Shown here: piece after piece, positions 2,289-30,717 of the stretch
Position numbering within the stretch: position 1 is the first letter of the stretch
Layout: every line of letters starts with the position of its first letter
Origin: a virus
Length of the DNA stretch: 64,000 nt
Reading direction: 5' to 3' (one strand)
Virus record (IMG/VR): IMGVR_UViG_3300027777_000023
Span: 1-64,000 of that record
Position numbers and translations under genes: made by a program
The notes under the pieces: generated by a model
Databases searched by the model: none
What the model saw: the letters and a program-made list of their open reading frames with translations, nothing else
What the model was told of the DNA's origin: nothing

Positions 2289-3245
2289 ATGGTTAATCAC
2301 TCTGCATCATTGCTTGTTAATTTAAATTTAAACGCCACAGATTTCACGACGCCTGACTTTTTTTCGCTGGCCGGAAGCACAAGCTCGGTGATAGCTAACG
2401 AATTGGGTGTGCCACTAGCCACCACCGACACATACACATCATTACGAACATACGCACGTTCTAGTTTGTTTGTGGCTAGAAATTATACTCAATTGAAATT
2501 GCCTAAAGAGTTGAGTAATTTTTACGATATCCTTTTTCCTTCGGGTAGCTCTGATTACTACAAGGAGTTTTTATTGTATTGTTACCTCCAACTCGTGAAC
2601 AGTACGGATAGATACAAGGATATCCTAGCTTACGACAATAGAATATCGTACGCATTGCACGAGATCCGTGAGTATTTTAAATTTTCTGGAAACGCACACA
2701 CATCGTCTAATTCAAAAGATTTTGAGTTGCTGGTCGACGGCGAGATAAAAAATTCTCCTGACATCAATTCAGCAACAACCTATTTTAATGTATGGCAATT
2801 AGGAAATACAAACACTGTATTGATATACTCTCCAACAAACAAAAAGTATTATAAGCCGGGCGCACCTGCACGCACGAACAGCGACAACATGCAGATTGTC
2901 GTGGAAGGCTCTCCTGGAAGCCCAACAACATCAAACACAATAGTAATGGGCGATTCTGGGCTGACCTGCACCATATCTGGAGATCTCCCAAATTTTACAA
3001 CACTAGGCAACAAGTATTGGTCATTCAACTCAACAGCTCCTCTGGTCTTTGATTTTACGGCAAAGTTAGCGGAGCTTTCCAACAGAGTCATGGTAGTAGA
3101 CGCTATGCTAGAACATAACAGAGAGCTGTGCTCTAGCTCTTATGAAAATTTATGGAGATTACACTATAACGATGTATACAAAGTGACAGGTTTACTGTTA
3201 GCTTATATAGAGAGAGTTAATTTAATATGGCAGCAAAAGATGTAA
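2289..3245 (+). CDS. Hypothetical virion/baseplate protein
   Basis: 318 aa ORF, tightly packed in the operon; no motif recognised. Confidence 0.5.
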   Translation: MVNHSASLLVNLNLNATDFTTPDFFSLAGSTSSVIANELGVPLATTDTYTSLRTYARSSLFVARNYTQLKLPKELSNFYDILFPSGSSDYYKEFLLYCYLQLVNSTDRYKDILAYDNRISYALHEIREYFKFSGNAHTSSNSKDFELLVDGEIKNSPDINSATTYFNVWQLGNTNTVLIYSPTNKKYYKPGAPARTNSDNMQIVVEGSPGSPTTSNTIVMGDSGLTCTISGDLPNFTTLGNKYWSFNSTAPLVFDFTAKLAELSNRVMVVDAMLEHNRELCSSSYENLWRLHYNDVYKVTGLLLAYIERVNLIWQQKM

Positions 3246-12765: not shown

Positions 12766-13653
12766 ATGCCATGGATAGATAGCCTAGATTGGTCATCTTT
12801 AAACGCTTTGCGTAGATATCCCTTACGCGAAGGCGTGAGTGCGCTCAGCAACGATGAGTTATTCAGTATTCCTGATACACTGATTGTGGACTTCACGCTG
12901 TGTGCCACTAGCGATGTTTCTCGCAGATTCTATGTATCAAAAATCTTTAATAGAATAACATCTGTCACAATAGATATCAGCGATAATCAGGATGTTGTTG
13001 TGGGTAGCGTTGTGATCGACATGGATACGCATATACAGGATGCCGATTATTATCTAGCCGTCTCGGACAATTACGTTGGGGCAAACGGTAAAATCACGAT
13101 AGGTTCTCTGGACGATTTGACAACTCAGCCGGCAGGTATATTTAATTTCACGATCACTGCTGCTGAGTTTGAACCCCGAACCATAGTCCCTGGTTTGCAG
13201 GGCGTGGATAGAATAACTTTCCTCGATAGTTCTAATGGGCAGCAAAGCGTGTCCGGTGACGTCGTGCTTACATCCAGGAATAATCTACGTTTTTCTTATG
13301 CCAGCGAGCATGTGTTGCTTGATGCTGGAGATAATCTCGGATTGAACAAAGCTTGCGTTGTAACGCAATGTATTCAAAGCATCAATGGTGTTGTACCAGA
13401 CCCGCTCTCAGGTAATGTAAATTTGCTAGGCATGAACTGTCTAAGCGTCACAAGTGCGACACAATATACGTTGAACTTGACAGATACGTGTTGTACACCG
13501 TGCTCTGGTTGCAACGACCTCGAAGACTTGACAGGAAGACTCACCTCACTAGAGAATAAGTTCTTAGACCTGAAAGGTAGCTATAATAGTGTTAATACTC
13601 AGCTGACAAACTATCTGTCCACCATAAACTCCAATTGCGCCTGTCCTGCGTAG
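12766..13653 (+). CDS. Fibre-scaffold paralog 1 (Cys-rich, C-terminal coiled coil)
   Basis: 'WSSLNALRRYPL', 'SINGVVPD', 'CCTPCSGC' followed by a heptad segment. Confidence 0.5.
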   Translation: MPWIDSLDWSSLNALRRYPLREGVSALSNDELFSIPDTLIVDFTLCATSDVSRRFYVSKIFNRITSVTIDISDNQDVVVGSVVIDMDTHIQDADYYLAVSDNYVGANGKITIGSLDDLTTQPAGIFNFTITAAEFEPRTIVPGLQGVDRITFLDSSNGQQSVSGDVVLTSRNNLRFSYASEHVLLDAGDNLGLNKACVVTQCIQSINGVVPDPLSGNVNLLGMNCLSVTSATQYTLNLTDTCCTPCSGCNDLEDLTGRLTSLENKFLDLKGSYNSVNTQLTNYLSTINSNCACPA

Positions 13654-13671: not shown

Positions 13672-16600
13672 ATGGCCTCACAGGAGTATCTAACAGCTAA
13701 CAGTTTAACATCGTACCCTTTCAAGACTCGTCGGCCTACGTCTCTTGTAGGTCACCCGATCGAGGACGACTGGTTTTATGACATTCAGTTTACGTCATTC
13801 GTCCCAGGTATACGTCAAGTTTATGTTGCTAGTATAGAAAAGACTTTATCTGGTGAATTAATAGTTTCTTTTGGTAACGCAGAAACCGACGAAATCATAC
13901 CGCAACCTGTGGAGATCGCTTCGGTAGAGTTGGTCAATCACTATAGAAATTCTGTAAAGAGCTTCGCGTCATCAACAGGCGCTAGATTCGCAGTAAAACT
14001 AATATTTGGTCCTGGGCTTTTAGAGAAGACAGCATTTAATCAGACATATACAAAAGCTGAAGCAGAGTTAACTTCTGCAGCTGTCGTACTATCAGCCCCT
14101 CGAGTCAATAGTCTATCGTTTAAAGCGTATGACGGTGGAGAGCTTCTGCATGTGGCCTCATACATGTTTCCGGAGGTTCCATATGTGCAGCCAAGGTACA
14201 ATAGCACCTTTACACTATATTCGATACACTCTGGCGACTTGTCTGTGGATGCAGATTCTGGTGCGGGGTTGTATGATGCTTGTCCTGCACCCGGAGCAAT
14301 TACTGATGTATATACCATAAACACTATAACACCAAACGATACTGGTGCGTTGTTTATAAATACATCACCGTGCTATACGCTTAATACATTAACCAGTAAC
14401 GATGAAATTTTGCTCGGCGAGTATTTGACACCGTATCGCGATTTCACAATACATACCGGACCCACAACTACAGATACGTTTGATGCTGTAGACGCAGAGC
14501 ATTCACTAGTACTACAAAATTTTTGTAAGCCCAAATGTCCTCCAGAAAATTTGGCTGCCTTTGCGTATTATTTAAATCGTGTTACTGACGGCGCCGCGGA
14601 ATTAACCAAGATAGCCACAAGTAATGTAGAGACACGAGGACGGGGTAGAAGCAATGTTCAAATATTTACCGCTGACGCTTTTTGTGTTAACGGTGATGAT
14701 ACGTTTGTTAGATGCTCTGATCCAGCAATCACTGAGAGCTATATTTCGTGTGGTGCAAAATTCATAAAATATTTTCACGAGGCCCGCACACTCCAAATTT
14801 CTTACGACAACGTTACCGTCAGAAATTACACTATTGTTGAGGTCTTGGACGACAATTCGGTAAGGTTATCATCTTCACCAACACAATCAGGGAATGCATT
14901 ATCTTTTAGGGTCATAGATAACGGTGTGATCAGCAACATGAATTGTGCTGCCGCTGGATATAACAGTGACGCACAGACGTATCTGCAGCCGTATTTTAAG
15001 GTAAAGCACACAACCTCAGAAGCGTTCAACTCTGCGGGGGAATATGTCACATATCTAGCAGTTTCTGTGGTATTATTCAATCCCAGTAAGCAGACAGCAC
15101 AGCTACAAGTCTTCACAGACTCAGGCGTATCTCCGTTAACTAGACAGGGAAATTTTAAAATACGTACCTCACAGACGGTAACAAGTTCAACGTCAGGAAT
15201 TGTTTCAATCGGTTGTAGGGATTATGCTTTTGTTGAGGTTGTTTACTACATACCGTGCGGTGTATCAGGAGGGTCACTGGCTGTTAATGTTTTTGATATA
15301 ACTTCATCAACACATACGCAGGTAGGATCGTCGTACAGTTTAAATAATATAGCTGGTGCACCGTGTCTAGGTACAACTCTAGGAGAAACAACTCTACTAA
15401 GAGTAACCCAACCTAACAGTGGTAGTTTTAGTGCTGAAGTAAATTTGGCTGCTGGAGTTAACTCTGTGACATTCTACGGCGATACCGTGGACTGGTTAGA
15501 ATTTACACCAAATTACACTGAGGGCAAAATAAGAATAACTGCTAAACATGCTAGTTCGATAGCAAGCAGTAAGCGTTACAGTGTCATATATAGAAGTTTT
15601 GGTGGAGATGTCTCTGGAGTCGTTTCAAACATCGTAATAGATTATGTCGCTCTTCCGGAGATATTGTCCCCGATAGCAGCAACCTTTTCATCGCAATCTC
15701 CTCTACGGTTGAGTAGGAAATTAAACTACACTGACACATCACCCATTTTGCAGATTTCTGCCGATAACATGTTATCGTTATCTAGCGACTTTCCGTCAGA
15801 TGTTTTTGAGTATACCTCATCCTCTTTACCTGACGGATTAGTATTAGACGCTACAACTGGAAAGCTTACAGGGCAGCTCACAGACCCGGAAATTCTTGGA
15901 GGACATAATTTTACTCTTACGGTCTCAGCGTCTAACCCTGCTGGTGCAGCGGTAAATCCTCAATTGATATATTTTTTGGTGGTTGCGGATGACCGTCCGT
16001 CGTTGTCTTTTGCAAATCCGCCGGAGAACAATGTTTTCGCTCTCGATAACATTACAATCTATGGTGATGTTATACAACCTTTCACACTGACTACGACGGG
16101 TGGACCAATAACACACTTCTCACTTTATGGAGATATTCCGGCGGGGCTAACATTCAATACATCTACAGGCAGAATTTTAGGGAAAATACTAGCAACTTCT
16201 TCTGGAAGCAGAGATCTTCAGATCACGGCATCTAACGTATACGGGACCTCAAATAGTCTAAGTTTTACGCTAGACTATACAATTTATAAATCTCCAGAAA
16301 TTGTCTCACCGACTTCACACACCTCACTGGTATTGTCGGCTGTCGATGAATCTACCACTGTAACTCCAACACTTACCGTAGTTGCTACCCAGGTTTATGG
16401 TGGCACTGATAACTATGCGGTTGGTTTGGTTGACGCAGTCAGAAATCATTTCTCTAGCACGAGTCTACCTCCAGGATTTCAGATAGGATTATATACAGGT
16501 AAAATATACGGAAAACTGACACCTGGCACTATACCAACTGACTCAGTAAAAGCTAAAAACTATGCTTGTGAGGTTCTGGTGAGTAACCCTATAGGTGTGT

Positions 16601-19600
16601 CTTCCCTTTACATCAATTTTTCTTTCTTTAATGCTGGATTACGTCCTGTAATAAATAACCTAATATCAGGACAGGTTATCTCACTTTCTAGAAATCGTGT
16701 GTATAGCTCGTCTGACCCACTATACCGAGTAGCGGCCATCAATAGTCCAACGTCCTTTGATGTGGTGGGTTTGCCTGCGGGACTAGCAATCAATGCCACA
16801 GGAGCCCTTATAGGTATGGTCGACACATCCGCATACGGCGGAGATTATTCTTTAACTGTAACAGCCATAAATGCTACAGGTATCAGCGACGAGGTACATA
16901 TACAATTACGTATACCTGTAAACATTTTGAGCCCTGTGGACGGAGGTTCAATTGTTCTAACCGTCAATCAAGCTATATCAAGCAGTGTTGAAATATTGAC
17001 GTGCCAGTTCAATGATTTCACCACAGCAACTATAACCACATCCACCCTACCTGCAGGGTTGTCACTATCAGGCACTTCTATAACTGGCACACCTTCGGCG
17101 TTAGGTACGTCTTTTGTTAAACTATACGCAACCACAGAAAATTACGGTACAGCGCAAATAACTGTGCAGGTTAAGGTAGTGGACGTCAGTTATTCTATAT
17201 CGGGCAATGTATCTGTTTTGGGTGGCGCTCCAGTTGCCGGTGTGTTGATAACAGATGGCAATACGTCTGCCACCACACGAGATGATGGCTCATATACACT
17301 TAACAACTGTGTAGTGGGCAGCTACAACATCACTGCGTCTAAACCCAAGCACATACTTACTCCAAGATACAGACCGGTCACAGTAACTAGCGCAAATTTA
17401 TATAATGTTAATTTTACGATTGAAGGTCCGCTGAGAACTGTATTTGGATCTGTGTTAAACACCGACAACCTACCTGTTTTTGGTGTATTAATTTCGGAAG
17501 GATCCCATACAACCAAAACAGACAGCTTTGGGCAGTACGCGCTGAGTGTGTCTAGGGTCGGCGCAGCTCCTATAACTGCCTCTTTGCCCTATAGCATAGC
17601 AATACCAGCATCGATAGCTTTGGATGATGGTGTAGTTGATTTATTTGACCAAAACTTTGTAGTAGCCATCGCATCGCCGCCAAAGGCCCCCACCCTTAAT
17701 TCTATAACTCTTGAAGATAGGAAGTTTGTAGTCAATTTTACTCCACCCGCAGACGACGGCGGTTATGCTATCACAAACTATCTCTACAATTTAAATAATA
17801 CGGGTTATCGTTCTGCCAATCCAATAACTACCGCAAGCCCAGTGGAAATCTCTGGATTGACTCCAGGTACAACGTATACGGTATCGTTGCGTGCTTTTAG
17901 TCAGATAGGTTCAGGAGCAGACTCTAATTCTTTGACGGCTACAGCTGTAGGTGCAGCCAGTGCGCCAACTATAAACCTGATAACTTCTTCTGGTCCTACG
18001 TCGTTAAGAGTGCAGTTTACCTCACCAGCAAACGACGGGGGATATGCTGTTGTGGGTTACAGATATAGATTAGACTCTGGAGATTTTGTGGATGTGTCTG
18101 ACCTGGCCGAAAACTCTTTCACGATTTCTGGTCTGTCTGGTGGTGTGAGATACAGTGTAATTCTAGCTGCGGTAACAAGTGTAGGTATAGGTGATTCATC
18201 TGCACCGTACGCAGGTGTACCTTTGGATGTGCCACATGCCCCAACCATAGCAAGCATAACATCAGCGTCTGGCCAACTTTTTGTGAATTTGGTTCCTCCC
18301 GCCAACAATGGTGGTTCCCCAATAATTAACTATAGATATACTTTGAACGGCGGCGAAGGGTTCATAGCTACCCGAGACAATTCAAGTATAGTGAGTATAG
18401 TGGGACTTATGGATGGTGTAAGTTATAGTGTGACGGTAGCCGCCGTAAACGCGCAAGGGGCTGGTCCATTTTCTGCGTCTGTGGCTGCTGTGCCGCAACA
18501 ATCACCGTATGCCCCAATATTGACCAGTATTGACGCCGGGGATACGACACTCGTAGTCAATTTTACACCACCTGTTTTAGGTGCGTCGTCTGTGGTTAGT
18601 TATAGTTACAGCTTAGATGACGGCAGCACATACCAAGAATGTATTCCTCCAGGTACGCTTTCTCCTGTACGTATATATGGACTGACAAATGGGACCAGCT
18701 ATGCGGTAAGGCTAAGACCCACATACAGTGACCTGACCTATGGAGCAACCTCCAATACGCTCAGTTCCATACCATTCACATTTCCCAGTGCGCCGACAAT
18801 AGATTCAATTAGGCCAAACAATAATGCGCTTGTTGTAAGCTACACTGCCGGCGATATTATTGGTGGGTTACCATTGACTAATTATCAATATAGTTTAGAC
18901 GCTGGCACTACGTGGATTTCCCGCTCACCTGCATCCACTCTGTCGCCGCTAACAATCTCAAATCTATTAAACGGTACAAGCTACGACGTGCAATTGAGGG
19001 CGCTAAATTCCGAAGGTCGTGGCGCAGCCTCAGCGACAACTACAGCCACACCATACACGTTACCTGCGGCTCCTGTACTAAATTCTGTGCTGATTTCAAG
19101 CAACGCTTTTGTTGTGGAGGCTATCGCACCAAACAATGGTGGAGCCGCTATAACTAATTACGCTTATAGTCTGGATAATGGTTTTAATTTTATTGTTTTT
19201 GCCCCAGCTGTATCCGCTCCACCATTTACGTTACCCATAGCAGATGCTTTAGTGGGCACAGCTTGCCGTATACGATTGCGGGCTATAAATGTGTTAGGAC
19301 AGGGTCCATCGTCCAACACTCTGACAGCCACATTTATCACAGTTCCCGCAGCTCCAACTATATCCGTAATAGCTCCAGGTAATGAATTAGCTGTGGTTAA
19401 TTTTGTGCCGCGCAGTACCGGAGGCTCTACAATAACCGATTACGAATATTCGATAGACAATTCACCGTTTATTTCTGGAGACAAAACAACCAGTCCTATC
19501 ATAATAAACGATCTTGTGAACGGCAGGTTGTATAGCATACGAGTTCGCGCGACAAATATTAAAGGAGCTGGCTTTGCTTCGCAGGCTGTCAGTGTTACTC

Positions 19601-22600
19601 CACGCAAAGCTCCGGATGCGCCACATATAGCCGCAGTAACTCCAGGCGACAGCTCGCTATCAATAACATTCACAGCCCCTAATGACAACGGTTCTCCTAT
19701 AACAAAATACGCTTACAGTATTAATAATGGGGCAACCTATACAGAGTTGCCCCCAGAAAGTGTGAATTCCCCGATAGTTAGATCGTCTCTAATTAATGGT
19801 AAGAACTACACAGTGAAAGTTAAAGCTTACAATGAGGCAGGTTTCGGCACACCCTCAACTGGCTACATTGTTGCGCCCGCAGGCCCTGCCTATGCACCCA
19901 GTTTAACCACGCTAATTCCAGGTAACGGTAGTTTGACACTAGCATTTAATGCTCCGACTAACAACGGCGGATCAGCTGTAGTGGGTTACCAGTATAGTTT
20001 GAATGGGGACCCTTTCATAGCCTCGGCACGTTTGGCAAATTCTATAACTATACCTGGCCTGGTTAATGGCCGGAGTTACAGTGTAACCCTTCGCGCTATT
20101 ACATCCTATGGCCCTGGCGCGACCTCCTTGGCACTCTCAGCTATACCTAGAACCACGCCAGACGCCCCAGTCATTACCGAATTGCTTGATTTTAGTCGTG
20201 GACTTGGGAGCACAGAATATAACATACCTGTGGGTAGTAAAGCTTTTGTAATTAAGTTCACTGCTCCGGCTGACGGAGGTTCACCCATAACAAACTATAA
20301 ATACACTCTTGATGCTGCAGCCACTGAGTTTAACCCTGCCAAGACCACAGACGCCCCGTTCGTTATACTTGACAGCAGTATAGCGGAAGGATTCCCGTAC
20401 AGCGTCACTATTTTCGCCAGGAACAGTCTTGGGTATGGTCCCGTTTCAAACACAGTCACATACACACCAGGCACACCTTCAGCACCAGCAATAACTTCTA
20501 TAGTTGCCGAAAATAATCAATTAAAGATATACTTTACACCACCAGTGTCAGACGGCGGCTCCTCAATACTCACCTATTCCTATAAGCTGACTCCTGAGCA
20601 GTATCCTCAGCGAATATATCCATTTAATACAACTAGTCCGATCACACTAAACATAGGGGACGCATTTTTCTTTTTAGGTACAACCTTCAATATCAGTATA
20701 GCTGCCACTAATAATTTGGGTTTTGGCAAATTTTCTAATGTAGTAGCTGCTACAGCGGGCCTACCCGGAGCTGTGCGTATTGATAATGTTGACGCCTTAA
20801 CAGATGGCCTTAAAATATACTTTACTCCTCCAGCAGATAATGGGAATGCTGCTGTCATAAATCATGAGTACAGTATTAACTCGTCCAGCTATATCTTGCT
20901 AGACCCACCGCAGGCAGCTATCCCTGGAGTATTTACAATAACCGGCTTAGTCAAAAATACTGTGTACAGTATATCTCTCAGGGCACGTAACAGTGTAGGT
21001 GTGGGCAAGGAAACCACCATCACAGCCACTCCAGGGGCCGCCTCACCACCAACACTAACTTACGTTACAGCCGCAGGTTCAGGCAAATTGATAATTAATT
21101 TTATTCCTCCAATCACCGACGGTGGAAGCAAAATTGTGAACTACCAATATAGTTTGGATGGTGGTGCCTATGTATCCGTGTCTCCTCCGGATGTGACAAA
21201 CTATATCACAATCACTGGACTCACGAACGGAACCAATTATGCTATTAGACTGCGTGCGGTGAATGAGTATGGTGGTTTTGGTATCGCGTCTACGCCCATC
21301 GCAGGTATTCCGATTGCGTCACCATCCAGTCCAATAATAGCCTCCGTAGAGTCGATAACCGCTTTCAGTATAGCTATTAATTTTACACCACCAACAGACA
21401 CCGGCGGCACAGCGATAACTAATTACGAGTATTCGCTGGATGGCGGCAACACATTCACATCCTATGAATCGATTACGAGTCCTATAGTTGTGACAGGTCT
21501 TGATATTTGCTCAGAAATTGATGTAGTGCTCCAGGCCACAAATATTGTAGGTACAGGACCAAACTCCAATACAGTGCATGTGTTCGCTGGCAGATTCCTT
21601 GCACCCAGATTGCTTGACATATATACAATATACGAGCCAACTGGGGCAGGCGTCCCAGACTCAATATTTATCTGGGAAAACCCACCATATAATGGGTTGG
21701 ATGTAACACTTGATCGTAATCAGCTAGACTACTCGATAGATGGTGGTGTTAATTGGTTAGCCTACGGTAATTATTATGGCGGCACACTTATCCAAAATTC
21801 CAACTTTCAACCCGCCCCCGAAGGAAGCGATGTTTTAATCCGTTTGAGCTACTCCAACTATCCTGTTGGCTTGTGCCCGGGATTACCATCAATTTCAGGC
21901 GTTTATTACAAAATCGGAACACCAAATTCTCCCACCATCAACAGTGTGGTAGTGTCGAACGAAGCACTCACCGTTAATTTCTCATTTAATTTAAAATATT
22001 CTTGGGAGGAGCCGACACCTGTCACAGATGTAGCCTACTCTTTAAATGGTGTGGATTACGTATCCTCAGGCACAGTCACCGGCCCGATAACAATTTCTGG
22101 ACTAACTAACCTAGTAACATATAATATCACACTTCGCGGAGTGAATGCTCAGGGCGTAGGCCGACCTTCACAAACAACCTCAGCAATTTTATTGCCTGCC
22201 CCCACCGTAGTCAGTGTGACATCCCCATCAGTCTCAAGCCTAATCGTCAACTTTACTGCTCCTATAGATCCTAATGGTGTAATAACAAATTACGAATATT
22301 CGACAGACGGAGGATCGACATGGGTGTTAGCCGGGAAAATCACAAGTCCTATAACTATAACTGAACTGACACTAGGCACTTCATATGATGTATGTCTTCG
22401 TGCACTGGCCTTGCACGGTACAAGCCTTCCATCAATCATTACTCAGGCGATCCCAGGCAGTCCCTCTGCACCAGTTCTACTATCTGTTGACAATGTCGGT
22501 GACCTAGGTTTGTTTTTAAACTTTACACCTCCAGTGAGCTTTGGACCTTTACCGCTGGCATACTATGAGTATGAGATTGAGGATCTGGGGACATACACCG

Positions 22601-22878
22601 ACACAGCCACAGCAAAAGCTGACTATTGGGGACGAACTCATGATGGTCAATACCTAACATCTGGCAGGTATTATTATGGAGGCTACTACGTCTTTGGGTT
22701 GGATGGCTACAATTATGTAGTTGATGCGTACGTGAATAGCGGCACACCGATCGACATTGCTCGAGCTGACTACTGGGGACTAACTCATGATGGGCAGTTT
22801 GAATCATCGGACAGATGGTATTGTGGTGGAATTTATGTCGGTAATAGCAATGACTATTTGACTAGCTCCTGCGGATAA
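13672..22878 (+). CDS. Giant fibre/adhesin: paralog-type N-domain, about 5 putative-Ig (He_PIG-like) repeats, 2 carboxypeptidase-regulatory-like domains, about 17 FN3 plus a half FN3
   Basis: 3068 aa; repeats 'LPxGL...TGxIxG'; recurring 'APxIxSI...LxVxFxPP.DGGxxITNYxYSLDGG...IxGLxNGxxYxVxLRAxN.G.G..S'. Confidence 0.85.
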   Translation: MASQEYLTANSLTSYPFKTRRPTSLVGHPIEDDWFYDIQFTSFVPGIRQVYVASIEKTLSGELIVSFGNAETDEIIPQPVEIASVELVNHYRNSVKSFASSTGARFAVKLIFGPGLLEKTAFNQTYTKAEAELTSAAVVLSAPRVNSLSFKAYDGGELLHVASYMFPEVPYVQPRYNSTFTLYSIHSGDLSVDADSGAGLYDACPAPGAITDVYTINTITPNDTGALFINTSPCYTLNTLTSNDEILLGEYLTPYRDFTIHTGPTTTDTFDAVDAEHSLVLQNFCKPKCPPENLAAFAYYLNRVTDGAAELTKIATSNVETRGRGRSNVQIFTADAFCVNGDDTFVRCSDPAITESYISCGAKFIKYFHEARTLQISYDNVTVRNYTIVEVLDDNSVRLSSSPTQSGNALSFRVIDNGVISNMNCAAAGYNSDAQTYLQPYFKVKHTTSEAFNSAGEYVTYLAVSVVLFNPSKQTAQLQVFTDSGVSPLTRQGNFKIRTSQTVTSSTSGIVSIGCRDYAFVEVVYYIPCGVSGGSLAVNVFDITSSTHTQVGSSYSLNNIAGAPCLGTTLGETTLLRVTQPNSGSFSAEVNLAAGVNSVTFYGDTVDWLEFTPNYTEGKIRITAKHASSIASSKRYSVIYRSFGGDVSGVVSNIVIDYVALPEILSPIAATFSSQSPLRLSRKLNYTDTSPILQISADNMLSLSSDFPSDVFEYTSSSLPDGLVLDATTGKLTGQLTDPEILGGHNFTLTVSASNPAGAAVNPQLIYFLVVADDRPSLSFANPPENNVFALDNITIYGDVIQPFTLTTTGGPITHFSLYGDIPAGLTFNTSTGRILGKILATSSGSRDLQITASNVYGTSNSLSFTLDYTIYKSPEIVSPTSHTSLVLSAVDESTTVTPTLTVVATQVYGGTDNYAVGLVDAVRNHFSSTSLPPGFQIGLYTGKIYGKLTPGTIPTDSVKAKNYACEVLVSNPIGVSSLYINFSFFNAGLRPVINNLISGQVISLSRNRVYSSSDPLYRVAAINSPTSFDVVGLPAGLAINATGALIGMVDTSAYGGDYSLTVTAINATGISDEVHIQLRIPVNILSPVDGGSIVLTVNQAISSSVEILTCQFNDFTTATITTSTLPAGLSLSGTSITGTPSALGTSFVKLYATTENYGTAQITVQVKVVDVSYSISGNVSVLGGAPVAGVLITDGNTSATTRDDGSYTLNNCVVGSYNITASKPKHILTPRYRPVTVTSANLYNVNFTIEGPLRTVFGSVLNTDNLPVFGVLISEGSHTTKTDSFGQYALSVSRVGAAPITASLPYSIAIPASIALDDGVVDLFDQNFVVAIASPPKAPTLNSITLEDRKFVVNFTPPADDGGYAITNYLYNLNNTGYRSANPITTASPVEISGLTPGTTYTVSLRAFSQIGSGADSNSLTATAVGAASAPTINLITSSGPTSLRVQFTSPANDGGYAVVGYRYRLDSGDFVDVSDLAENSFTISGLSGGVRYSVILAAVTSVGIGDSSAPYAGVPLDVPHAPTIASITSASGQLFVNLVPPANNGGSPIINYRYTLNGGEGFIATRDNSSIVSIVGLMDGVSYSVTVAAVNAQGAGPFSASVAAVPQQSPYAPILTSIDAGDTTLVVNFTPPVLGASSVVSYSYSLDDGSTYQECIPPGTLSPVRIYGLTNGTSYAVRLRPTYSDLTYGATSNTLSSIPFTFPSAPTIDSIRPNNNALVVSYTAGDIIGGLPLTNYQYSLDAGTTWISRSPASTLSPLTISNLLNGTSYDVQLRALNSEGRGAASATTTATPYTLPAAPVLNSVLISSNAFVVEAIAPNNGGAAITNYAYSLDNGFNFIVFAPAVSAPPFTLPIADALVGTACRIRLRAINVLGQGPSSNTLTATFITVPAAPTISVIAPGNELAVVNFVPRSTGGSTITDYEYSIDNSPFISGDKTTSPIIINDLVNGRLYSIRVRATNIKGAGFASQAVSVTPRKAPDAPHIAAVTPGDSSLSITFTAPNDNGSPITKYAYSINNGATYTELPPESVNSPIVRSSLINGKNYTVKVKAYNEAGFGTPSTGYIVAPAGPAYAPSLTTLIPGNGSLTLAFNAPTNNGGSAVVGYQYSLNGDPFIASARLANSITIPGLVNGRSYSVTLRAITSYGPGATSLALSAIPRTTPDAPVITELLDFSRGLGSTEYNIPVGSKAFVIKFTAPADGGSPITNYKYTLDAAATEFNPAKTTDAPFVILDSSIAEGFPYSVTIFARNSLGYGPVSNTVTYTPGTPSAPAITSIVAENNQLKIYFTPPVSDGGSSILTYSYKLTPEQYPQRIYPFNTTSPITLNIGDAFFFLGTTFNISIAATNNLGFGKFSNVVAATAGLPGAVRIDNVDALTDGLKIYFTPPADNGNAAVINHEYSINSSSYILLDPPQAAIPGVFTITGLVKNTVYSISLRARNSVGVGKETTITATPGAASPPTLTYVTAAGSGKLIINFIPPITDGGSKIVNYQYSLDGGAYVSVSPPDVTNYITITGLTNGTNYAIRLRAVNEYGGFGIASTPIAGIPIASPSSPIIASVESITAFSIAINFTPPTDTGGTAITNYEYSLDGGNTFTSYESITSPIVVTGLDICSEIDVVLQATNIVGTGPNSNTVHVFAGRFLAPRLLDIYTIYEPTGAGVPDSIFIWENPPYNGLDVTLDRNQLDYSIDGGVNWLAYGNYYGGTLIQNSNFQPAPEGSDVLIRLSYSNYPVGLCPGLPSISGVYYKIGTPNSPTINSVVVSNEALTVNFSFNLKYSWEEPTPVTDVAYSLNGVDYVSSGTVTGPITISGLTNLVTYNITLRGVNAQGVGRPSQTTSAILLPAPTVVSVTSPSVSSLIVNFTAPIDPNGVITNYEYSTDGGSTWVLAGKITSPITITELTLGTSYDVCLRALALHGTSLPSIITQAIPGSPSAPVLLSVDNVGDLGLFLNFTPPVSFGPLPLAYYEYEIEDLGTYTDTATAKADYWGRTHDGQYLTSGRYYYGGYYVFGLDGYNYVVDAYVNSGTPIDIARADYWGLTHDGQFESSDRWYCGGIYVGNSNDYLTSSCG
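22618..22839 (+). repeat. Two imperfect direct repeats (147-nt spacing) encoding ADYWGxTHDGQ...SxRxYxGG
   Basis: Copies start at 22618 and 22765; the first 29 nt are 27/29 identical. Confidence 0.85.
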
Positions 22879-22896
22879 TAGATAATTTTTAATTAT

Positions 22897-25800
22897 ATGA
22901 GTTTCGAAATAATCAATGCTCCGTGGGCGGTACCCGATTTAGTTGAGGGGCACACATATTTGATACGTATGCGGGCCATTAATACTGGTGGGTACGCTGG
23001 ACCAGTTTCCTCTGACGGCTTTGGTGTTGTTGTGTTGGCTGCTTCTGCCCCAACAATAACTTCAGTCGTGGAAGCTGACCACCAGTTAACTATAAATTTT
23101 GACGCTCCCACAGATAACGGCAACCACGCTATAACCAACTATGAGTATAGCTTGGACGGAGGCATTACATACAGACCTTTCTCGCCTGCAAAGACCACTA
23201 GCCCATATACAATAACAGGGCTCACAAACTGGACGACTTATCTGATAAACCTTCGGGCGGTCAACTCTATAGGTTCAGGTAGAGCCTCAGAGCAGGCGCA
23301 CGGTCAGCCAGGACAACTACCTCCAACACCTACAATAACTAAAATAGAGGCCCGAGCCTATTATGGGTATTATCCTTTTTTTAATATATATTTCACACTA
23401 CCTGGCGATAACTTCGGAGGGAGTGTGTGGTATTACGAATATGCTATAAATGGTGGTCCCTTTTTATCTGGGGGGCTATATAGCGAATTGCATACTGCTA
23501 GCCCAATGACTGGGATATGGAAGATAGCCGGGCAGAGCTTGCTTGCATGTACAGATTATAGTATTGTTGTTCGCGGCGTGAACGGTTACGGGCCAGGGCA
23601 GGCATCCTCCGCAGTTGAGGTTAAGACTGCAGTACCTGCAGGTGCGCCGCAAATTACAAGTATTGTTGGTAGTGAGCATAAGATAACGGTGTATTTCACA
23701 CCCGGTGAGTTTGATTCGGTCTGTAATTCCTCGATTACTAATTATTCGTATAGCCTCGACGACGGAGCCACATTTATAGACCTAGACCCTGCCAGTGTTA
23801 TAAATCCTATCGTTATCGGAGGATTGCAGAATAGTGTATCTTATCCTGTACGCCTACGTAGTTTTAGTGTGGCTGGTTACAGTGAAGCGTCCGATACGGT
23901 TTATGGTGTACCTAATACACAATCAGGTCCCCCAGTAATAACATCTGCAGATGTCTCAGATACTTATGCGCTGATTTATTTTGATGCTCCTACTGATAAT
24001 GGTGGTGCCCCTATAGATGCCTACGAATATTCTATAGATGGTGGGTATACGTTTCATGCCAACAGCTCAGCAACAACTTCAAGCCCATTTAATATTGAGA
24101 AGCTTCAAAAAACTTCAACATATGGAGTACGTATTAGGGCTATAACCGCTGCAGGTCCTGGGATACCTTCAGAACTGTTCAGTATTACCACAATCACCAA
24201 ACCTGAGGCACCCACAATACTTAGTGTCACCCCAGGCGATCAATCCATAACTGTGGCCTTTAAAGAAGTAGCTAGCAGTGGAGGAGCCCCACTGACCGGA
24301 TACAAGTGTGTAATACATTCTCCGGGTTTAACTGGAGACCAGACTGTGATTGTTAACAGTATAACGAGCCCGATCGTGATTAATTCTGCTGCGAGCGTTT
24401 ATCTTGTGAATAGTCAAACATATACAATTAAGTTGTACGCCAGAAGCAAGGCGGGGTTTGGTGTAGGTGTTGACGGACCCGATGTAGTACCAGCAAGACC
24501 ACCAACAGCCCCAACAATAACAAACATATCTCAAGACAGCGGACATGTTAATATAACTTTCACACCGCCATCGTCCAACGGAGGTTCAATTATCACAGGG
24601 TATAAATACACCATCGATGACGGTACGACTTTTACTAATGTTATATATGGTACCCCAGGAGGACCAACAGGTAACGACGCATCTCTTTACACTATGGTGA
24701 AAATAGATTTATTGCCAAGAAATGCGGCGTATTCTGTTAAGATTGCGGCGGTCAATGGTGCAGGTATAGGCACGAACTCTAACTCTGCGGACATCACAGT
24801 GCTCTCTGTGCCATATTCTCCGAGAGACTTAGTACTTACCGTACTGAGCTCCTCATCAGTCAGTATAGGCTTTAACGCTCCATCAAATGACGGAGGTTCA
24901 GCCATAACAAACTATGAGTATAGTTTGAATAGAGGTATAGCGCCATTCATACCTGTCAGCCCTGCAACTGCAACCAGCCCCATCATTATAACTGGGCTGA
25001 CACAAGGAACCACATATAGCACAGTTATACGCGCTGTGAATAGTGTTGGAGCAGGCTATGTATCCAGTCCAATCGATATCAAGGCTGGTACGACCCCACA
25101 GGCACCAACAATAACAGCGGTGTCCAGTAATCTACCAACACTGCAGGTTAGTTTCACTGCACCTGTAGACGGTGGAGGATACACTATAAATAATTATCAG
25201 TACAGTATTGATGGCGGAAATACATACGCCACGCTATCCCCAGCAAATAATATATCTCCATTAACTATCACAAATGTTACAGTAGGTAATTCCTACACCG
25301 TCAAATTAAAGGCTGTTAACGCTCTAGGTGTTGGTCTGGCCTCGAACGGTATCACAGGAAAAGCCATATCTGCGCCGAGTGCACCTACGATAACCTCTGT
25401 AGTTGCGATTAATACACAATTAGCTATAAACTTCACACAACCAGCTAGCGATGGAGGAAGCACTATCACCAACTACGAGTATAGCTTGGATAACGGACTT
25501 ACATACTTAGACGCGGCCACATACGCAGCCTGGACCGGCCTCCCAAATCCTATAAATGTCTCTAATCTCAGGAATGGTGTCACGTACTCGGTACGTATCA
25601 GAGGCCGTAATGTGGGAGGCATTGGTGCTTTGTCGAACACAGTTACAGCCACACCAGCAACACTACCAAAAGCACCCAGGATCACTTCAACTTTGCCCAG
25701 TAACGGTAGAATAACTTTGAACATACAACCTCCAGCAGACACAGGTGGTGCCTCAATATTAGGATACAAGTACAGCTTATCTCCAGGTCCGGCGTCAGAA

Positions 25801-27966
25801 AAGATGCCATATATAATAACGTCTCCCATCAGCCTTCCAGGCACCAATGGACAAGCTTATGACATAAAAATTTGGGCGGTTAACCGTATGGGTGATAGTG
25901 TTGACTTTGCTTCCACCACCGCCACACCATTGTCAGCCTCGATTAACGCACCAACCATAACAAATATTGCTGCTGGTGACGGAAGTATTGTTGTGACCTA
26001 TTCGATGGTTGCAGGAACTTTGGAGGGGACACCACTAACGAACTACAAGTATAGTGTTGACGGTGGGACTACATACACAGCCCTCAACCCATCAAACGCA
26101 GCGCTATCAGGATCATTCACAGTGTCAGGTCTCAACAATGAAGCCGTATATACTGTAAAGATGCGGGCAGTCAATGCCGCCGGTGACGGAGTACAATCAG
26201 CTGGAGTTCAGGCTACCCCCAGAGGAGCACCCTCAACACCAACAATAACTAGTGTGGTTGCCGGAAATCAGTCACTCGCATTAAATTTTACACAGCCCGC
26301 GTCTCCAAAAGCTGCCGTTACGAACTATGAGTATAGTTTAAACGGAGGCGATACATACATTGCGCGCTCCCCGGCATCTATCTTGTCGCCCTTAGTCATT
26401 ACCGGATTAACAAATGGCGTTACATGTGTTGTAAGACTTCGGTCTCTAAACGCTAACGGATTACCGAGCGCCACGGCAGCCGAACCTCCAACAAATGCAA
26501 ATGATTGCAAACCAGGAACAGCGCTAACTCTTACCGATATTCCAGAAATAACGGCCATAGCGGCTGACGAGCATCAGCTTACTATAACCTACAGTATGCC
26601 TCAGCTGCTTGTAACTGTAGCAAACATATTAAACCATAAATATAGTTTAGATAATGGTGTAACTTGGACAGCCTTAGCGCCAGCAAGAACCGCACTCACA
26701 GACACATTTACCGTAACCGGGTTGATAAATTTTAAAGACTATGAGCCAAGAATGAAGGCTGTGAACGCTTTGGGTGACGGTTATATGTCGGTGGGGTATT
26801 GGCTAAAGCGCCCAACTGGACCGCCACCTGTCTATGAAACAATAACAAACGATAACTACGGTACCGTGTATCGCAGATTTAATAACGCCGTATCGGGACA
26901 ACCTCCGTTCTTTTTGATTGAGATTACACTGAAGCCGTTTGAGTATCCTGGAGCAATCAAAACTTCAGAGATCAGTTTGGACGGTGGTACAACTTGGCGT
27001 ACCATACTACCATTCACAAATCAAACCGGGACTACCTATTATTTGGCTCAATACGACTCTCGCAGCCCTTATCAGTATGCATATATCACTGACCCTGACC
27101 CAGAAGCTGTTCGTAGAATTGGTCTACGCACAATTAACGACAAGGGCACCTCAGCTGCACTATACGTAGATATTACAGAACCGCTCACCTACGCACCCTT
27201 CCCTACAATACTTGGGACGCGCTGGGAAATTCCTGCAGGTGCAGCTGCGTTAGAGCAGTTGGTTGTCAGCGTGGACCTTGGCGACTCGCAGCTAACCCGA
27301 TTAACAAAACTTAAAGACTGCTACTTGCGCGTTGTGCGGCAGAACGGTAATTACACATTACCATGGCCGTGGCCAGACCCAGCTGTTTTCCTATCGCTAG
27401 AAAATCGCAAACTTGGAAGCGCAGAAACCCGCATAGATTTGCCTCCGCTAACCGCAGCAAAAGATAGAGTCATTACAGGCCTCTACATACGGGCAACCAG
27501 TCATAACGAGCGGGGCTACTCCCATACCGCGACGTATCCTCTCCCGGCAGATTTACCATGGATGCAGCGTCCCGTATTTGTGGTATCCAGACCAAATGCC
27601 GCAGGTTCAAGTTTGGTCTCTTTTACGCAAATACTGAATGGTGTTCAGATATATCCATTCACAGTTGCTTCGTATACGATAGTGTATTCCGTTGATGGTG
27701 GTCCTTGGTTAAATTTCCGAGCCAACCCCACATTTTCCGTGTCGGCTAATTCTTCACACATCATAAGGACAGCTATATTTGAAAATGGTCAACCGTCTTG
27801 TCACGTAATCGCCTGCGTATTACCTGCACCAGACGGAATTATGAGCTACCCTCAAGGATATGTTTCGCCACGCATCTGGAGCAATTATCCAGAGCCCGCA
27901 ATGCTCACACCGTCCAACGTCATCGACAATTATATTCCATTCAATCCATTTGATTTATCGACCTAG
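22897..27966 (+). CDS. Giant FN3-repeat protein (starts with a half FN3, then about 13 FN3, divergent C-terminus)
   Basis: 1689 aa; same FN3 consensus and same reading frame as the upstream giant ORF. Confidence 0.85.
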   Translation: MSFEIINAPWAVPDLVEGHTYLIRMRAINTGGYAGPVSSDGFGVVVLAASAPTITSVVEADHQLTINFDAPTDNGNHAITNYEYSLDGGITYRPFSPAKTTSPYTITGLTNWTTYLINLRAVNSIGSGRASEQAHGQPGQLPPTPTITKIEARAYYGYYPFFNIYFTLPGDNFGGSVWYYEYAINGGPFLSGGLYSELHTASPMTGIWKIAGQSLLACTDYSIVVRGVNGYGPGQASSAVEVKTAVPAGAPQITSIVGSEHKITVYFTPGEFDSVCNSSITNYSYSLDDGATFIDLDPASVINPIVIGGLQNSVSYPVRLRSFSVAGYSEASDTVYGVPNTQSGPPVITSADVSDTYALIYFDAPTDNGGAPIDAYEYSIDGGYTFHANSSATTSSPFNIEKLQKTSTYGVRIRAITAAGPGIPSELFSITTITKPEAPTILSVTPGDQSITVAFKEVASSGGAPLTGYKCVIHSPGLTGDQTVIVNSITSPIVINSAASVYLVNSQTYTIKLYARSKAGFGVGVDGPDVVPARPPTAPTITNISQDSGHVNITFTPPSSNGGSIITGYKYTIDDGTTFTNVIYGTPGGPTGNDASLYTMVKIDLLPRNAAYSVKIAAVNGAGIGTNSNSADITVLSVPYSPRDLVLTVLSSSSVSIGFNAPSNDGGSAITNYEYSLNRGIAPFIPVSPATATSPIIITGLTQGTTYSTVIRAVNSVGAGYVSSPIDIKAGTTPQAPTITAVSSNLPTLQVSFTAPVDGGGYTINNYQYSIDGGNTYATLSPANNISPLTITNVTVGNSYTVKLKAVNALGVGLASNGITGKAISAPSAPTITSVVAINTQLAINFTQPASDGGSTITNYEYSLDNGLTYLDAATYAAWTGLPNPINVSNLRNGVTYSVRIRGRNVGGIGALSNTVTATPATLPKAPRITSTLPSNGRITLNIQPPADTGGASILGYKYSLSPGPASEKMPYIITSPISLPGTNGQAYDIKIWAVNRMGDSVDFASTTATPLSASINAPTITNIAAGDGSIVVTYSMVAGTLEGTPLTNYKYSVDGGTTYTALNPSNAALSGSFTVSGLNNEAVYTVKMRAVNAAGDGVQSAGVQATPRGAPSTPTITSVVAGNQSLALNFTQPASPKAAVTNYEYSLNGGDTYIARSPASILSPLVITGLTNGVTCVVRLRSLNANGLPSATAAEPPTNANDCKPGTALTLTDIPEITAIAADEHQLTITYSMPQLLVTVANILNHKYSLDNGVTWTALAPARTALTDTFTVTGLINFKDYEPRMKAVNALGDGYMSVGYWLKRPTGPPPVYETITNDNYGTVYRRFNNAVSGQPPFFLIEITLKPFEYPGAIKTSEISLDGGTTWRTILPFTNQTGTTYYLAQYDSRSPYQYAYITDPDPEAVRRIGLRTINDKGTSAALYVDITEPLTYAPFPTILGTRWEIPAGAAALEQLVVSVDLGDSQLTRLTKLKDCYLRVVRQNGNYTLPWPWPDPAVFLSLENRKLGSAETRIDLPPLTAAKDRVITGLYIRATSHNERGYSHTATYPLPADLPWMQRPVFVVSRPNAAGSSLVSFTQILNGVQIYPFTVASYTIVYSVDGGPWLNFRANPTFSVSANSSHIIRTAIFENGQPSCHVIACVLPAPDGIMSYPQGYVSPRIWSNYPEPAMLTPSNVIDNYIPFNPFDLST

Positions 27967-28014: not shown

Positions 28015-29064
28015 ATGGCGATTATCGCACTACATCCTAATAATAAAAATCAGTATAGAAAGTATCCACTGAAACAAGGAAGTGACTTTGTTTCCACTGA
28101 TGGGTATGTTGTTCCTGACGATCTGGTAGTCAATTGCTCCATAACATCAATCTACGGAAAGCACAGGGTTTACATAAAACAAATAATGTTTAAAGAACTT
28201 GTCGCCCGTATAGCTGTGGCGTCTGTTCTGGACGATGTGTTGCTTGGTGTTTTTTCTGGAGAAGTTTCAGACGACTTCACTACTATAACTCTTCAACCGT
28301 TTGTTCGGTTTGTATTTGGTACTATTACATTAGGCTCATTAACCTCACTAACCGCAATAACAAGAGTTCTAAATTTCAGCAATCCTCTCATGGGTGGAAA
28401 ATCTGAGCTAGAAGAGTCTACAATATTTTGTTATACTCCGCCCGCAGTCAAAAGTATTCGAGATAAAAAGAATAACGAGCTTAGAGGAGACGTCAACTTC
28501 GGTGTGTTGACCTCGTTAACAAAAACTACAGATCAGCAAACAAAATCCACAAAGTTTACAGCATTGTATCCTGACACAGTATTTAATCTGTCTGATAAGT
28601 CTTCATATATAGGCACATGCCCTAACCCCGTAATTAAAAACATTAACGGAGTTGAGCCGCACCCTTCAGGAGTCGCGAGCCCAGTTAATGACGGTAACAT
28701 ATACATTGTTGGTGTTAAACCTGTGATCTTTTATGGTGTCGCTGGGGAGTTAGATGCCGGTACCGCAGGCGGCACTGTTCGTGTTGTTACGGATGGCGTC
28801 ACACTCGACAGCTTGTGTACGCAACGCCACAAGCTGCTTCCTCCTGTAGATGTTTCAGGTTTTACGTTGGACACTTCTGAGTTTAAAAATAAATATTATA
28901 GCAAACCTAATTTACCGGCGCACCCAGAAGGCTCAGCAAATTATCCATTACCGAGACCTGCACGCCTGGCCAGTAATTTTAACGCTACCACAAAACCCGA
29001 ATACTATTACTGGCCGCAATTTGTAAAACCAGAGTATTATCAGTATTGGGTTTCTGAGGAATAA
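28015..29064 (+). CDS. Fibre-scaffold paralog 3
   Basis: 'NKNQYRKYPL', 'LRGDVNF', 'IKNINGVEP'. Confidence 0.5.
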   Translation: MAIIALHPNNKNQYRKYPLKQGSDFVSTDGYVVPDDLVVNCSITSIYGKHRVYIKQIMFKELVARIAVASVLDDVLLGVFSGEVSDDFTTITLQPFVRFVFGTITLGSLTSLTAITRVLNFSNPLMGGKSELEESTIFCYTPPAVKSIRDKKNNELRGDVNFGVLTSLTKTTDQQTKSTKFTALYPDTVFNLSDKSSYIGTCPNPVIKNINGVEPHPSGVASPVNDGNIYIVGVKPVIFYGVAGELDAGTAGGTVRVVTDGVTLDSLCTQRHKLLPPVDVSGFTLDTSEFKNKYYSKPNLPAHPEGSANYPLPRPARLASNFNATTKPEYYYWPQFVKPEYYQYWVSEE

Positions 29065-29802: not shown

Positions 29803-30717
29803 ATGGAACAAGTTTTAGATTGGTTGAATGAAAATGAGGTCAGGGCTTACCCTTTGCTGGGGGACGCCAGTAAAAATGTAACTGCGTTAACGTGGAATTA
29901 TAGCTTACCTGACAATTTTTTATTGGATTTACAGTTATTGTCTACAGTGAGCCTCACAGTCGTAGACCCGCAATTGGGACCATTACCTGCACCAGTGTCA
30001 CTTTCAGGTTTATTGTATGCTTCAGGAGACCTGACGGTGACATTTAGCGCAGCCGAAAATATCATCACAACCTTTGTAGTTGTTAATGCGGCTCACGCGA
30101 TTTATCCCTATTATGTACGGAATGCTGACGGTTGCCTTGCAGTATTCGGTGCCGGTACACAAACACTTGTAACCTCAGGCATACCTGTCGACCAGCTTGT
30201 CGTGGTAGACATATCGACTGAACCTACTGTTTGCGTACAATTCAATGATACTTGGCTTGGTGTGAGTGGTATCAGCGTATCACCTGAAAAAAAGACAGTT
30301 GCTCCTGGTTATGCGCCTCGACTACCTATTGAGCCTAACCCTACCGTAAGCAAATTGACTGGTGATGTTAAATTTTTAGAGGGCTATAATTTTAGGGTAA
30401 ACATCGCAAACAATCTGATTGACTTGGAGATTAGCTCAAGTTATGGTTTGATTATGAACTGCAGTACATCTTTCCTGCCCGCAAGGTACTTAGATTGCTC
30501 TGAGCTTGTTTCGTATATTAACGGTGTGCCCCCAGACACGCACGGTAAATTTACATTAAACCCAGGTAATAATATAAACATACCCACAGGTGATGTGTTG
30601 AGTGCGTTTGCAGATCCTTTAGAGGAGTCCGCAAATACTCATTCGTTATTTGTGGGTCTAACGTTCCAGTCGACAGATTTGTGCGCTCCAGTCAATATCA
30701 CACCATCTATAACGTAA
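29803..30717 (+). CDS. Fibre-scaffold paralog 5
   Basis: 'WLNENEVRAYPL', 'LTGDVKF', 'VSYINGVPPD'. Confidence 0.5.
   Translation: MEQVLDWLNENEVRAYPLLGDASKNVTALTWNYSLPDNFLLDLQLLSTVSLTVVDPQLGPLPAPVSLSGLLYASGDLTVTFSAAENIITTFVVVNAAHAIYPYYVRNADGCLAVFGAGTQTLVTSGIPVDQLVVVDISTEPTVCVQFNDTWLGVSGISVSPEKKTVAPGYAPRLPIEPNPTVSKLTGDVKFLEGYNFRVNIANNLIDLEISSSYGLIMNCSTSFLPARYLDCSELVSYINGVPPDTHGKFTLNPGNNINIPTGDVLSAFADPLEESANTHSLFVGLTFQSTDLCAPVNITPSIT

Follow-up and report, generated by a model that had tools for sequence, protein, structure and literature searches.

In chaperone-usher pili, an incomplete immunoglobulin-like subunit is completed by an N-terminal segment from the next subunit, which gives end-to-end noncovalent polymers, and type V pili are built by strand exchange. 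Fibronectin type III (FN3) domains have been engineered for fragment complementation by Dutta, Batori, Koide and Koide (Protein Sci, 2005), where the separate pieces reportedly bind tightly and rebuild the fold. The furin site of the insulin receptor lies in a disordered insert domain within the CC′ loop of the FnIII-2 domain; the first part of FnIII-2 forms the end of the alpha chain, and the remainder belongs to the beta chain (PMC10573852; PMC7039211). BppU of Lactococcus phage Tuc2009 has a 25-residue hairpin at its C-terminus that completes a sheet of BppA domain 2, resulting in a composite titin-like domain (PMC4742702). Here, we describe an FN3 unit that is divided between two adjacent giant open reading frames (ORFs), termed ORF1 and ORF2, of an uncultured phage with a genome of ∼190 kb. 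The ORFs are located in the first 64 kb (64,000 nucleotides [nt]; this stretch is termed the window herein) of the IMG/VR virus record IMGVR_UViG_3300027777_000023, which comprises 189,602 bp and has a CheckV completeness of 97%.

Our preferred reading is that the two half-domains rejoin in trans and form a functional FN3 joint between the ORF1 and ORF2 proteins. Judged from the sequence and from structure models, we give this reading a probability of roughly 0.5.

RESULTS

An FN3 unit is divided between two adjacent giant ORFs

ORF1 (positions 13672 to 22878, plus strand) is a giant FN3-array fiber gene encoding 3068 amino acids, and ORF2 (22897 to 27966, plus strand; 1689 amino acids) lies in the same frame and continues the FN3 array. 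ORF1 consists of an N-terminal module, 16 complete FN3 units, half an FN3 unit, and then a repeat tail. ORF2 begins with half an FN3 unit, which is followed by 13 complete units together with one weak partial match and by a divergent FN3-like C-terminal region. A Pfam scan detected numerous fn3 domains in both ORFs, as well as He_PIG and CarboxypepD_reg domains within ORF1.

A profile of 79 positions was made from the FN3 repeats of the protein itself and run on the full-length ORF1-ORF2 read-through, where it yielded 32 FN3 matches. Match 17 covers profile positions 1 to 48 (independent E value, 1.5e-10; 27.7 bits) and represents the N-terminal half of FN3 unit 17, with strands A, B, C, and C′ (22468 to 22614, plus strand; ORF1 amino acids 2933 to 2981). 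Match 18 covers profile positions 41 to 75 at ORF2 amino acids −2 to 33 (independent E value, 2.1e-8; 20.9 bits) and represents the C-terminal half, with strands E, F, and G (22897 to 23040, plus strand; ORF2 amino acids 1 to 48). Pfam fn3 positions 52 to 75 were likewise matched by ORF2 amino acids 11 to 34 (E value, 0.057). A complete unit 17 is present in neither ORF alone, and the full length of PF00041 is covered only by both halves together. When the junction was aligned with 25 intact paralogous FN3 units using MAFFT, a single gap of ∼100 columns was required, located between strands C′ and E, and the next FN3 unit of ORF2 follows the half-domain in normal register. Because one FN3 unit bridges ORF1 and ORF2 in frame and in register, the match is not due to chance, and derivation of both ORFs from one continuous FN3 array is supported by these sequence comparisons.

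Scored in isolation, the N-terminal half reached 37.3 bits (32.6 to 66.9 bits for the intact paralogous halves) and the C-terminal half 25.4 bits (20.1 to 40.2 bits). In the alignment to the 25 paralogues, the halves retain the best-conserved columns of the array, P6, Y39, and G179. The FG loop of unit 17 carries a 7-amino-acid insertion that is absent from all 25 aligned paralogues; in the FN3 fold, the FG loop lies at the same pole as the C′-E loop.

An earlier note on this DNA, made by reading the sequence, had claimed that the last FN3 unit of ORF1 has only strands A-B-C-C′ and that ORF2 begins with exactly the missing strands E-F-G. The former agrees with profile positions 1 to 48 and the latter with profile positions 41 to 75, the Pfam match, and the MAFFT register. 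The note was also right that both ORFs are in one frame, with TAA TAG and five codons between them and a normal TATG start context, as confirmed by the sequence and by the start contexts of the window. It did not mention a tail of 93 amino acids, not related to FN3, that stands between the ORF1 strands and the stop codons.

An insertion ending in tandem stop codons opens the C′-E loop

The half-domain is thus not the end of ORF1, and in the read-through the two halves lie ∼100 residues apart rather than 7. The intervening non-FN3 tail (22597 to 22875, plus strand) is located in the C′-E loop and contains two copies of a 34-amino-acid repeat, the first at 22618 to 22716 (plus strand; ORF1 amino acids 2983 to 3015; 50.8 bits with the repeat profile) and the second at 22765 to 22857 (plus strand; ORF1 amino acids 3032 to 3062; 64.5 bits). 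The repeats share the motif AD.WG.T..GQ(Y/F)..S.R(W/Y)Y..G.YVG, and the tail DNA holds a 147-nt tandem repeat. Directly after the tail, ORF1 is terminated by the tandem stop codons TAA TAG (22876 to 22881, plus strand), followed by an A/T-rich spacer of 15 nt (22882 to 22896, plus strand), which reads as five in-frame sense codons (ATA ATT TTT AAT TAT), and then the ATG of ORF2. The FN3 unit has therefore been opened not by a clean cut but by an in-frame loop insertion of ∼300 nt that ends in stop codons.

The start context of ORF2 is A/T-rich, with TATG and no Shine-Dalgarno sequence, and resembles those of other genes in the window. No terminator was located between ORF1 and ORF2, and an Rfam search returned nothing at the junction, so that an intron or ribozyme is not supported there. 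A promoter-like site (TTGACT-17-GATAAT; 22858 to 22886, plus strand) overlaps the ORF1 stop codons, and an ORF2 transcript started from it would have almost no leader. Since promoter-like sites in this region are no more numerous than in shuffled sequences, a separate ORF2 transcript is only a possibility.

Taken on the sequence, a real split into two cistrons is very likely, and two other explanations of the stop codons are far less probable. The first is an assembly or sequencing artifact, in which the real gene would be continuous and the stop codons, or the whole insert, would be errors or the product of a chimeric join. This record was assembled from a metagenome, and DNA made of FN3 repeats is easily misassembled; moreover, two related contigs, L004 (∼3.5× coverage) and L011 (at a TTT run), show apparent FN3-internal frameshifts that are possibly indel errors. 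However, it would take several errors to create two stop codons in a row. The tail of 279 nt, which is unique, keeps the frame and has strong homology to a real repeat family (E value, 4e-82); both flanks fit one FN3 unit exactly, which a chimeric join would not produce; and the start context of ORF2 is normal. We consider an artifact very improbable.

Recoding, the second explanation, would produce a single chain of ∼4760 amino acids by read-through, bypass, or reassignment of a stop codon, with unit 17 carrying a nested insert. ORF1 and ORF2 do lie in the same frame, and FN3 units accept loop inserts, which are small in the paralogues and possibly reach ∼130 amino acids in the related contig L002, there with weak scores. 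The last sense codon, GGA, stands directly before the stop, and the take-off site of T4 gene 60 is also GGA followed by a stop. Against recoding, TAA and TAG stand in tandem, and TAA, TAG, and TGA all terminate other genes (26, 8, and 5, respectively, of the 39 long ORFs in the window); with coding density under table 11 also normal, the data give no sign of stop codon reassignment. The lack of an Rfam element at the junction adds to this, and we regard recoding as slightly more improbable still than an artifact. A bypass of the T4 gene 60 type, in which the landing codon lies ∼50 nt downstream, was considered as a candidate and rejected: the next in-frame GGA is located ∼120 nt downstream (ORF2 codon 35), and strands E and F would be lost by a bypass to this codon.

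The two halves are compatible with one FN3 domain

An AlphaFold2 (AF2) model of the read-through, built with the paralogue alignment, gave predicted local distance difference test (pLDDT) scores of 85 to 89 for the N-terminal half and 79 to 87 for the C-terminal half. The insert, for which that job contained no alignment, scored 37 to 51. The model superposes on single solved FN3 domains, with 95 residues spanning model residues 1 to 198 aligned to 2vkw_A (Z score, 13.5; root mean square deviation, 1.7 Å). Residues 593 to 805 of the insulin receptor ectodomain (4zxb_E) were also among the fold matches (Z score, 11.3; 92 residues aligned over a chain range of 213 residues). At the level of the model, the two halves are shown to be geometrically compatible as one FN3 domain.

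We propose that a giant FN3-array gene was divided into adjacent cistrons inside unit 17, where the C′-E loop would have gained ∼300 nt comprising two 34-amino-acid fiber repeats, TAA TAG, the 15-nt spacer, and an ATG. ORF1 would thereby have retained the virion-proximal module, the 16 complete FN3 units, and strands A-B-C-C′. Both cistrons would be translated from one transcript, and the half-domains would reassociate by fragment complementation, with strand E pairing onto strand B and strand F onto strand C. The rebuilt FN3 domain would fasten ORF2 to the distal end of ORF1, and the repeat tail would project from this joint as a side module. We infer that both cistrons are expressed and that their products bind in trans and are present in the virion. 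Consistent with a joint, ORF2 is an intact 5-kb frame with a typical start context.

A possible anchor module is shared by ORF1 and flanking genes

The N-terminal module of ORF1 is the orthologue of the N-terminus of a single giant gene found in related phage contigs. Three genes that flank the giant pair (12766 to 13653, 28015 to 29064, and 29803 to 30717) are weak paralogues of each other, with 22 to 24% identity and E values of 2e-7 to 1e-5. The N-terminus of the ORF1 family is a distant relative of these anchor-type paralogues, and its orthologue in contig L004 matches the 12766 protein with an E value of 3e-7. No anchor module is present in ORF2, which is not similar to the 12766, 28015, or 29803 protein. 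The sequence comparisons fit an anchor module that is common to the flanking genes and the ORF1 N-terminus and that ORF2 does not have. Since ORF2 is without it, the half FN3 unit is the only visible attachment device of ORF2.

The inserted repeat belongs to an undescribed family of phage fiber modules

A phmmer search of the tail against 1.84 billion representative proteins returned 11 matches, of which P0002, P0003, and P0004 are repeat arrays. The best match was P0002, a protein of 903 amino acids matched in 14 stretches (E value, 4e-82), and the contig of 141 kb that encodes it carries, in the neighborhood of its gene, genes with Peptidase_S74, collagen, Laminin_G_3, and GP38 matches, i.e., a tail fiber cluster. 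The core unit of 34 amino acids has the consensus ADAWGLTNNGQYESSGRWYFNGSYVGNLSEYNAA in the profile made from P0002 to P0009, and this profile matches P0002 in 17 copies and the ORF1 tail in two. The position of the repeat in the other proteins varies, being N-terminal (P0003 and P0008), C-terminal (P0004), or internal, and the tail shares 41 to 58% identity with two-repeat segments of four of them. The family was also observed at L009:8001-10712, L006:7859-10903, L008:3186-5843, and L007:2143-2706, and genes with the 34-amino-acid repeat are located in phage tail fiber clusters and beside glycosyltransferase genes.

The tail had no significant Pfam match (the top hit was DUF7435, with an E value of 0.32), and sequence searches of the PDB gave no relative of the tail profile or of P0002. 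Modeled by AF2 with an alignment of two-repeat segments, the tail reached a mean pLDDT of 84.4, and each repeat is predicted to form a helix followed by short hairpins. This model had no structural match among PDB representatives (top Z score, 3.0) or in BFVD (E values above 1). The 34-amino-acid repeat is an undescribed phage fiber module without a known fold match.

No further copy of the tail repeat was found in the genome of the phage itself. The insert shows no anomaly in composition, its G+C content being equal to that of the flanks, and no direct repeats flank it, i.e., there is no mark of a target-site duplication. The tail contains two cysteines, both in ORF1, one at 22825 to 22830 (in ..WYCGG..) and one at 22870 to 22872 (in the final ..SSCG); the first stands where the repeat consensus has a residue other than cysteine. 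From their positions in the sequence, the two could staple the ORF1 C-terminus by a disulfide bond.

Relatives have a single gene at this position

Related contigs were collected via the ORF1 N-terminus and via the gene downstream of ORF2. Six contigs contain the complete gene (L002, L005, L011, L012, L013, and L014), and each has one gene between the orthologues of the genes that flank ORF1 and ORF2 (12766 and 28015), that of L011 being frameshifted. In the other five, the single gene encodes 3063 (L002), 2638 (L005), 1286 (L012), 788 (L013), or 1445 (L014) amino acids. This conserved synteny supports a single ancestral gene, though no particular ancestral length. None of the five single genes contains the tail repeat, which is also absent from the whole L002 record. 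The C-termini of the giant proteins of the relatives are unrelated to each other and to the ORF2 C-terminus; the orthology of the ORF2 end is not demonstrable, and the comparison suggests that the distal part of the giant gene turns over fast.

Neither the junction nor a fused form of it was found in blastn and tblastn searches against phage genomes or in a search of the read-through junction against viral contigs. A set of 5.8 billion proteins (1687 to 5369 amino acids) returned only the query itself, and a search with the ORF2 N-terminus returned only generic FN3 arrays with at most 57% identity. The earlier note had proposed the fission, inside a domain, of an ancestral gene of about 4760 amino acids and had named fused homologues as a check. 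One gene in six relatives agrees with a divided ancestral gene, but the division is tied to the ∼300-nt insertion and was not a clean fission, and the ancestral length is not inferable from relatives that range from 788 to >3300 amino acids and have unrelated C-termini. As to the check, the relatives do have a single gene in the same slot, but a fused form of this junction is missing from the searched sets.

Other irregularities occur in the gene family. In L011, a 128-kb IMG/VR contig, the orthologous giant gene is broken between strands E and F of a different FN3 unit (L011:5100-5140), where the frame changes at a TAATG stop-start overlap directly after the TTT run. The break reflects either an indel error of one base or another split that arose independently in the gene family; a search for relatives of the L011 split returned L011 alone. 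In L004, a marine contig, the gene stops just after strand A of an FN3 unit (L004:4860-4890), and strand B follows in an overlapping ORF that has an ATG start and lies in another frame; this interruption is probably a frameshift error. The last FN3 unit of the L002 gene (L002:10001-19192, amino acids ∼2870 to 3063) seems to hold an insert of ∼130 amino acids between strand C and strands F-G, with weak profile scores; if real, it is a loop insert inside one chain in the giant-gene family.

The comparison with relatives bears on a further explanation, according to which the insertion was recent and disruptive. Foreign fiber DNA with two repeats, stop codons, spacer, and start would have landed in an FN3 loop and left both halves vestigial; ORF1 would now be a shorter fiber with a new two-repeat tip, the half-domains would be unfolded leftovers, and ORF2 would have not yet decayed, be free in the cell, or be attached otherwise. 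The split is unique to this genome, and the relatives thrive with one gene of variable length and variable ends. The tail is also a complete, neatly ending two-repeat module that is confidently folded alone in its model, and the same repeat is found at protein termini elsewhere (P0003, P0008, and P0004). On the other hand, the 5067-nt frame of ORF2 would stay open only if it were selected or very young, the G+C content of the insert is the same as that of the flanks with no source copy in the genome, the halves retain the best-conserved columns of the array, and an exposed half FN3 unit would presumably be a liability on a virion protein. We regard a recent disruptive insertion as possible, though not probable.

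Several observations weigh against a joint between the two chains. The scores of both halves, which are inside the range of intact halves, fall in its lower part. The read-through model was built on an alignment of intact paralogues and is thus driven by homology; it represents a single chain and is not independent evidence. ORF2 amino acids 1 to 53 contain no cysteine, so that no interchain disulfide of the insulin receptor kind is possible there. Finally, the split with this tail was seen in no other searched genome or protein set, and the insertion may be a recent one.

DISCUSSION

The trans-complemented FN3 joint that we favor for ORF1 and ORF2 shares features with each of the described systems. 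The FnIII-2 domains of the insulin receptor and IGF-1R likewise consist of one FN3 domain formed from two chains, with a large loop insert and a chain break within or at the end of the insert; in the phage, an insert of 93 amino acids lies between C′ and E, and the break follows directly. The receptor, in contrast, is made whole, folded, cut by furin, and linked by disulfides, whereas ORF1 and ORF2 are two cistrons with tandem stop codons and a separate ATG, and neither a protease-cut precursor nor the disulfide has a counterpart here. The inserts also differ, that of the receptor being disordered and located in the CC′ loop and that of the phage being located in the C′-E loop and predicted to be a folded repeat module. 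In engineered FN3 fragment complementation, the fold is also obtained from two separately made pieces, but these are artificial, isolated fragments.

The earlier note had likened the arrangement to donor-strand complementation in pili, a looser analogy, since three strands would be donated here and not one. In chaperone-usher pili, one strand (G) is donated with the help of a periplasmic chaperone and an usher, and homopolymers or ordered heteropolymers result, whereas in the phage three strands (E, F, and G) would be donated at one joint, and more than a single strand is missing from the ORF1 half. No chaperone or usher was seen at the phage locus, where no dedicated search for PapD/PapC-like genes was made, and a phage virion component that is put together in the cytoplasm would presumably do without them. 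Because three strands are involved rather than one, the split FN3 unit appears, by analogy, closer to fragment complementation or to insulin receptor FnIII-2 than to pilus donor-strand complementation.

The statement in the same note that it knew of no described phage example needs to be narrowed. Papers on strand complementation in phage tail fibers did not turn up in a full-text literature search, but in the Tuc2009 baseplate tripod, a solved phage adsorption device, the terminal extension of one protein completes a beta-sheet in the beta-sandwich of another (PMC4742702), so that for phage adsorption a beta-sandwich joint made of two chains has already been solved. In Tuc2009, the small domain that receives two strands is otherwise almost whole and belongs to a short accessory protein, and nothing points to an origin by gene fission. 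ORF2, in comparison, would supply three of seven strands, the halves are recognizably one ancestral FN3 unit, and both partners are giant arrays, known here from sequence and a single-chain model.

Going beyond a functional joint, we tentatively suggest that the split FN3 unit is a selected plug-and-socket connection, in which ORF2 would be held only by the FN3 domain rebuilt from two chains and the two-repeat module would serve as a latch or as an extra binding knob. With such joints, large phages could extend their fibers or replace distal parts via recombination within FN3 arrays.

Should the two halves fail to associate, the locus still gives a clear snapshot of an insertion breaking a giant repeat gene. 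The 34-amino-acid repeat is also an uncharacterized fiber module of phages for which no fold is known. Should they associate, two very large virion proteins would be connected by an FN3 fragment-complementation joint that is natural and encoded in the genome. The chain break would be next to a loop insert, like that of the insulin receptor, yet it would arise from gene fission rather than from proteolysis. Fiber proteins could in that case be strung together with neither trimeric interdigitation nor dedicated adaptor domains, and there would be a route for exchanging host recognition parts. The joint would also provide a ready-made split-domain pair for protein engineering.

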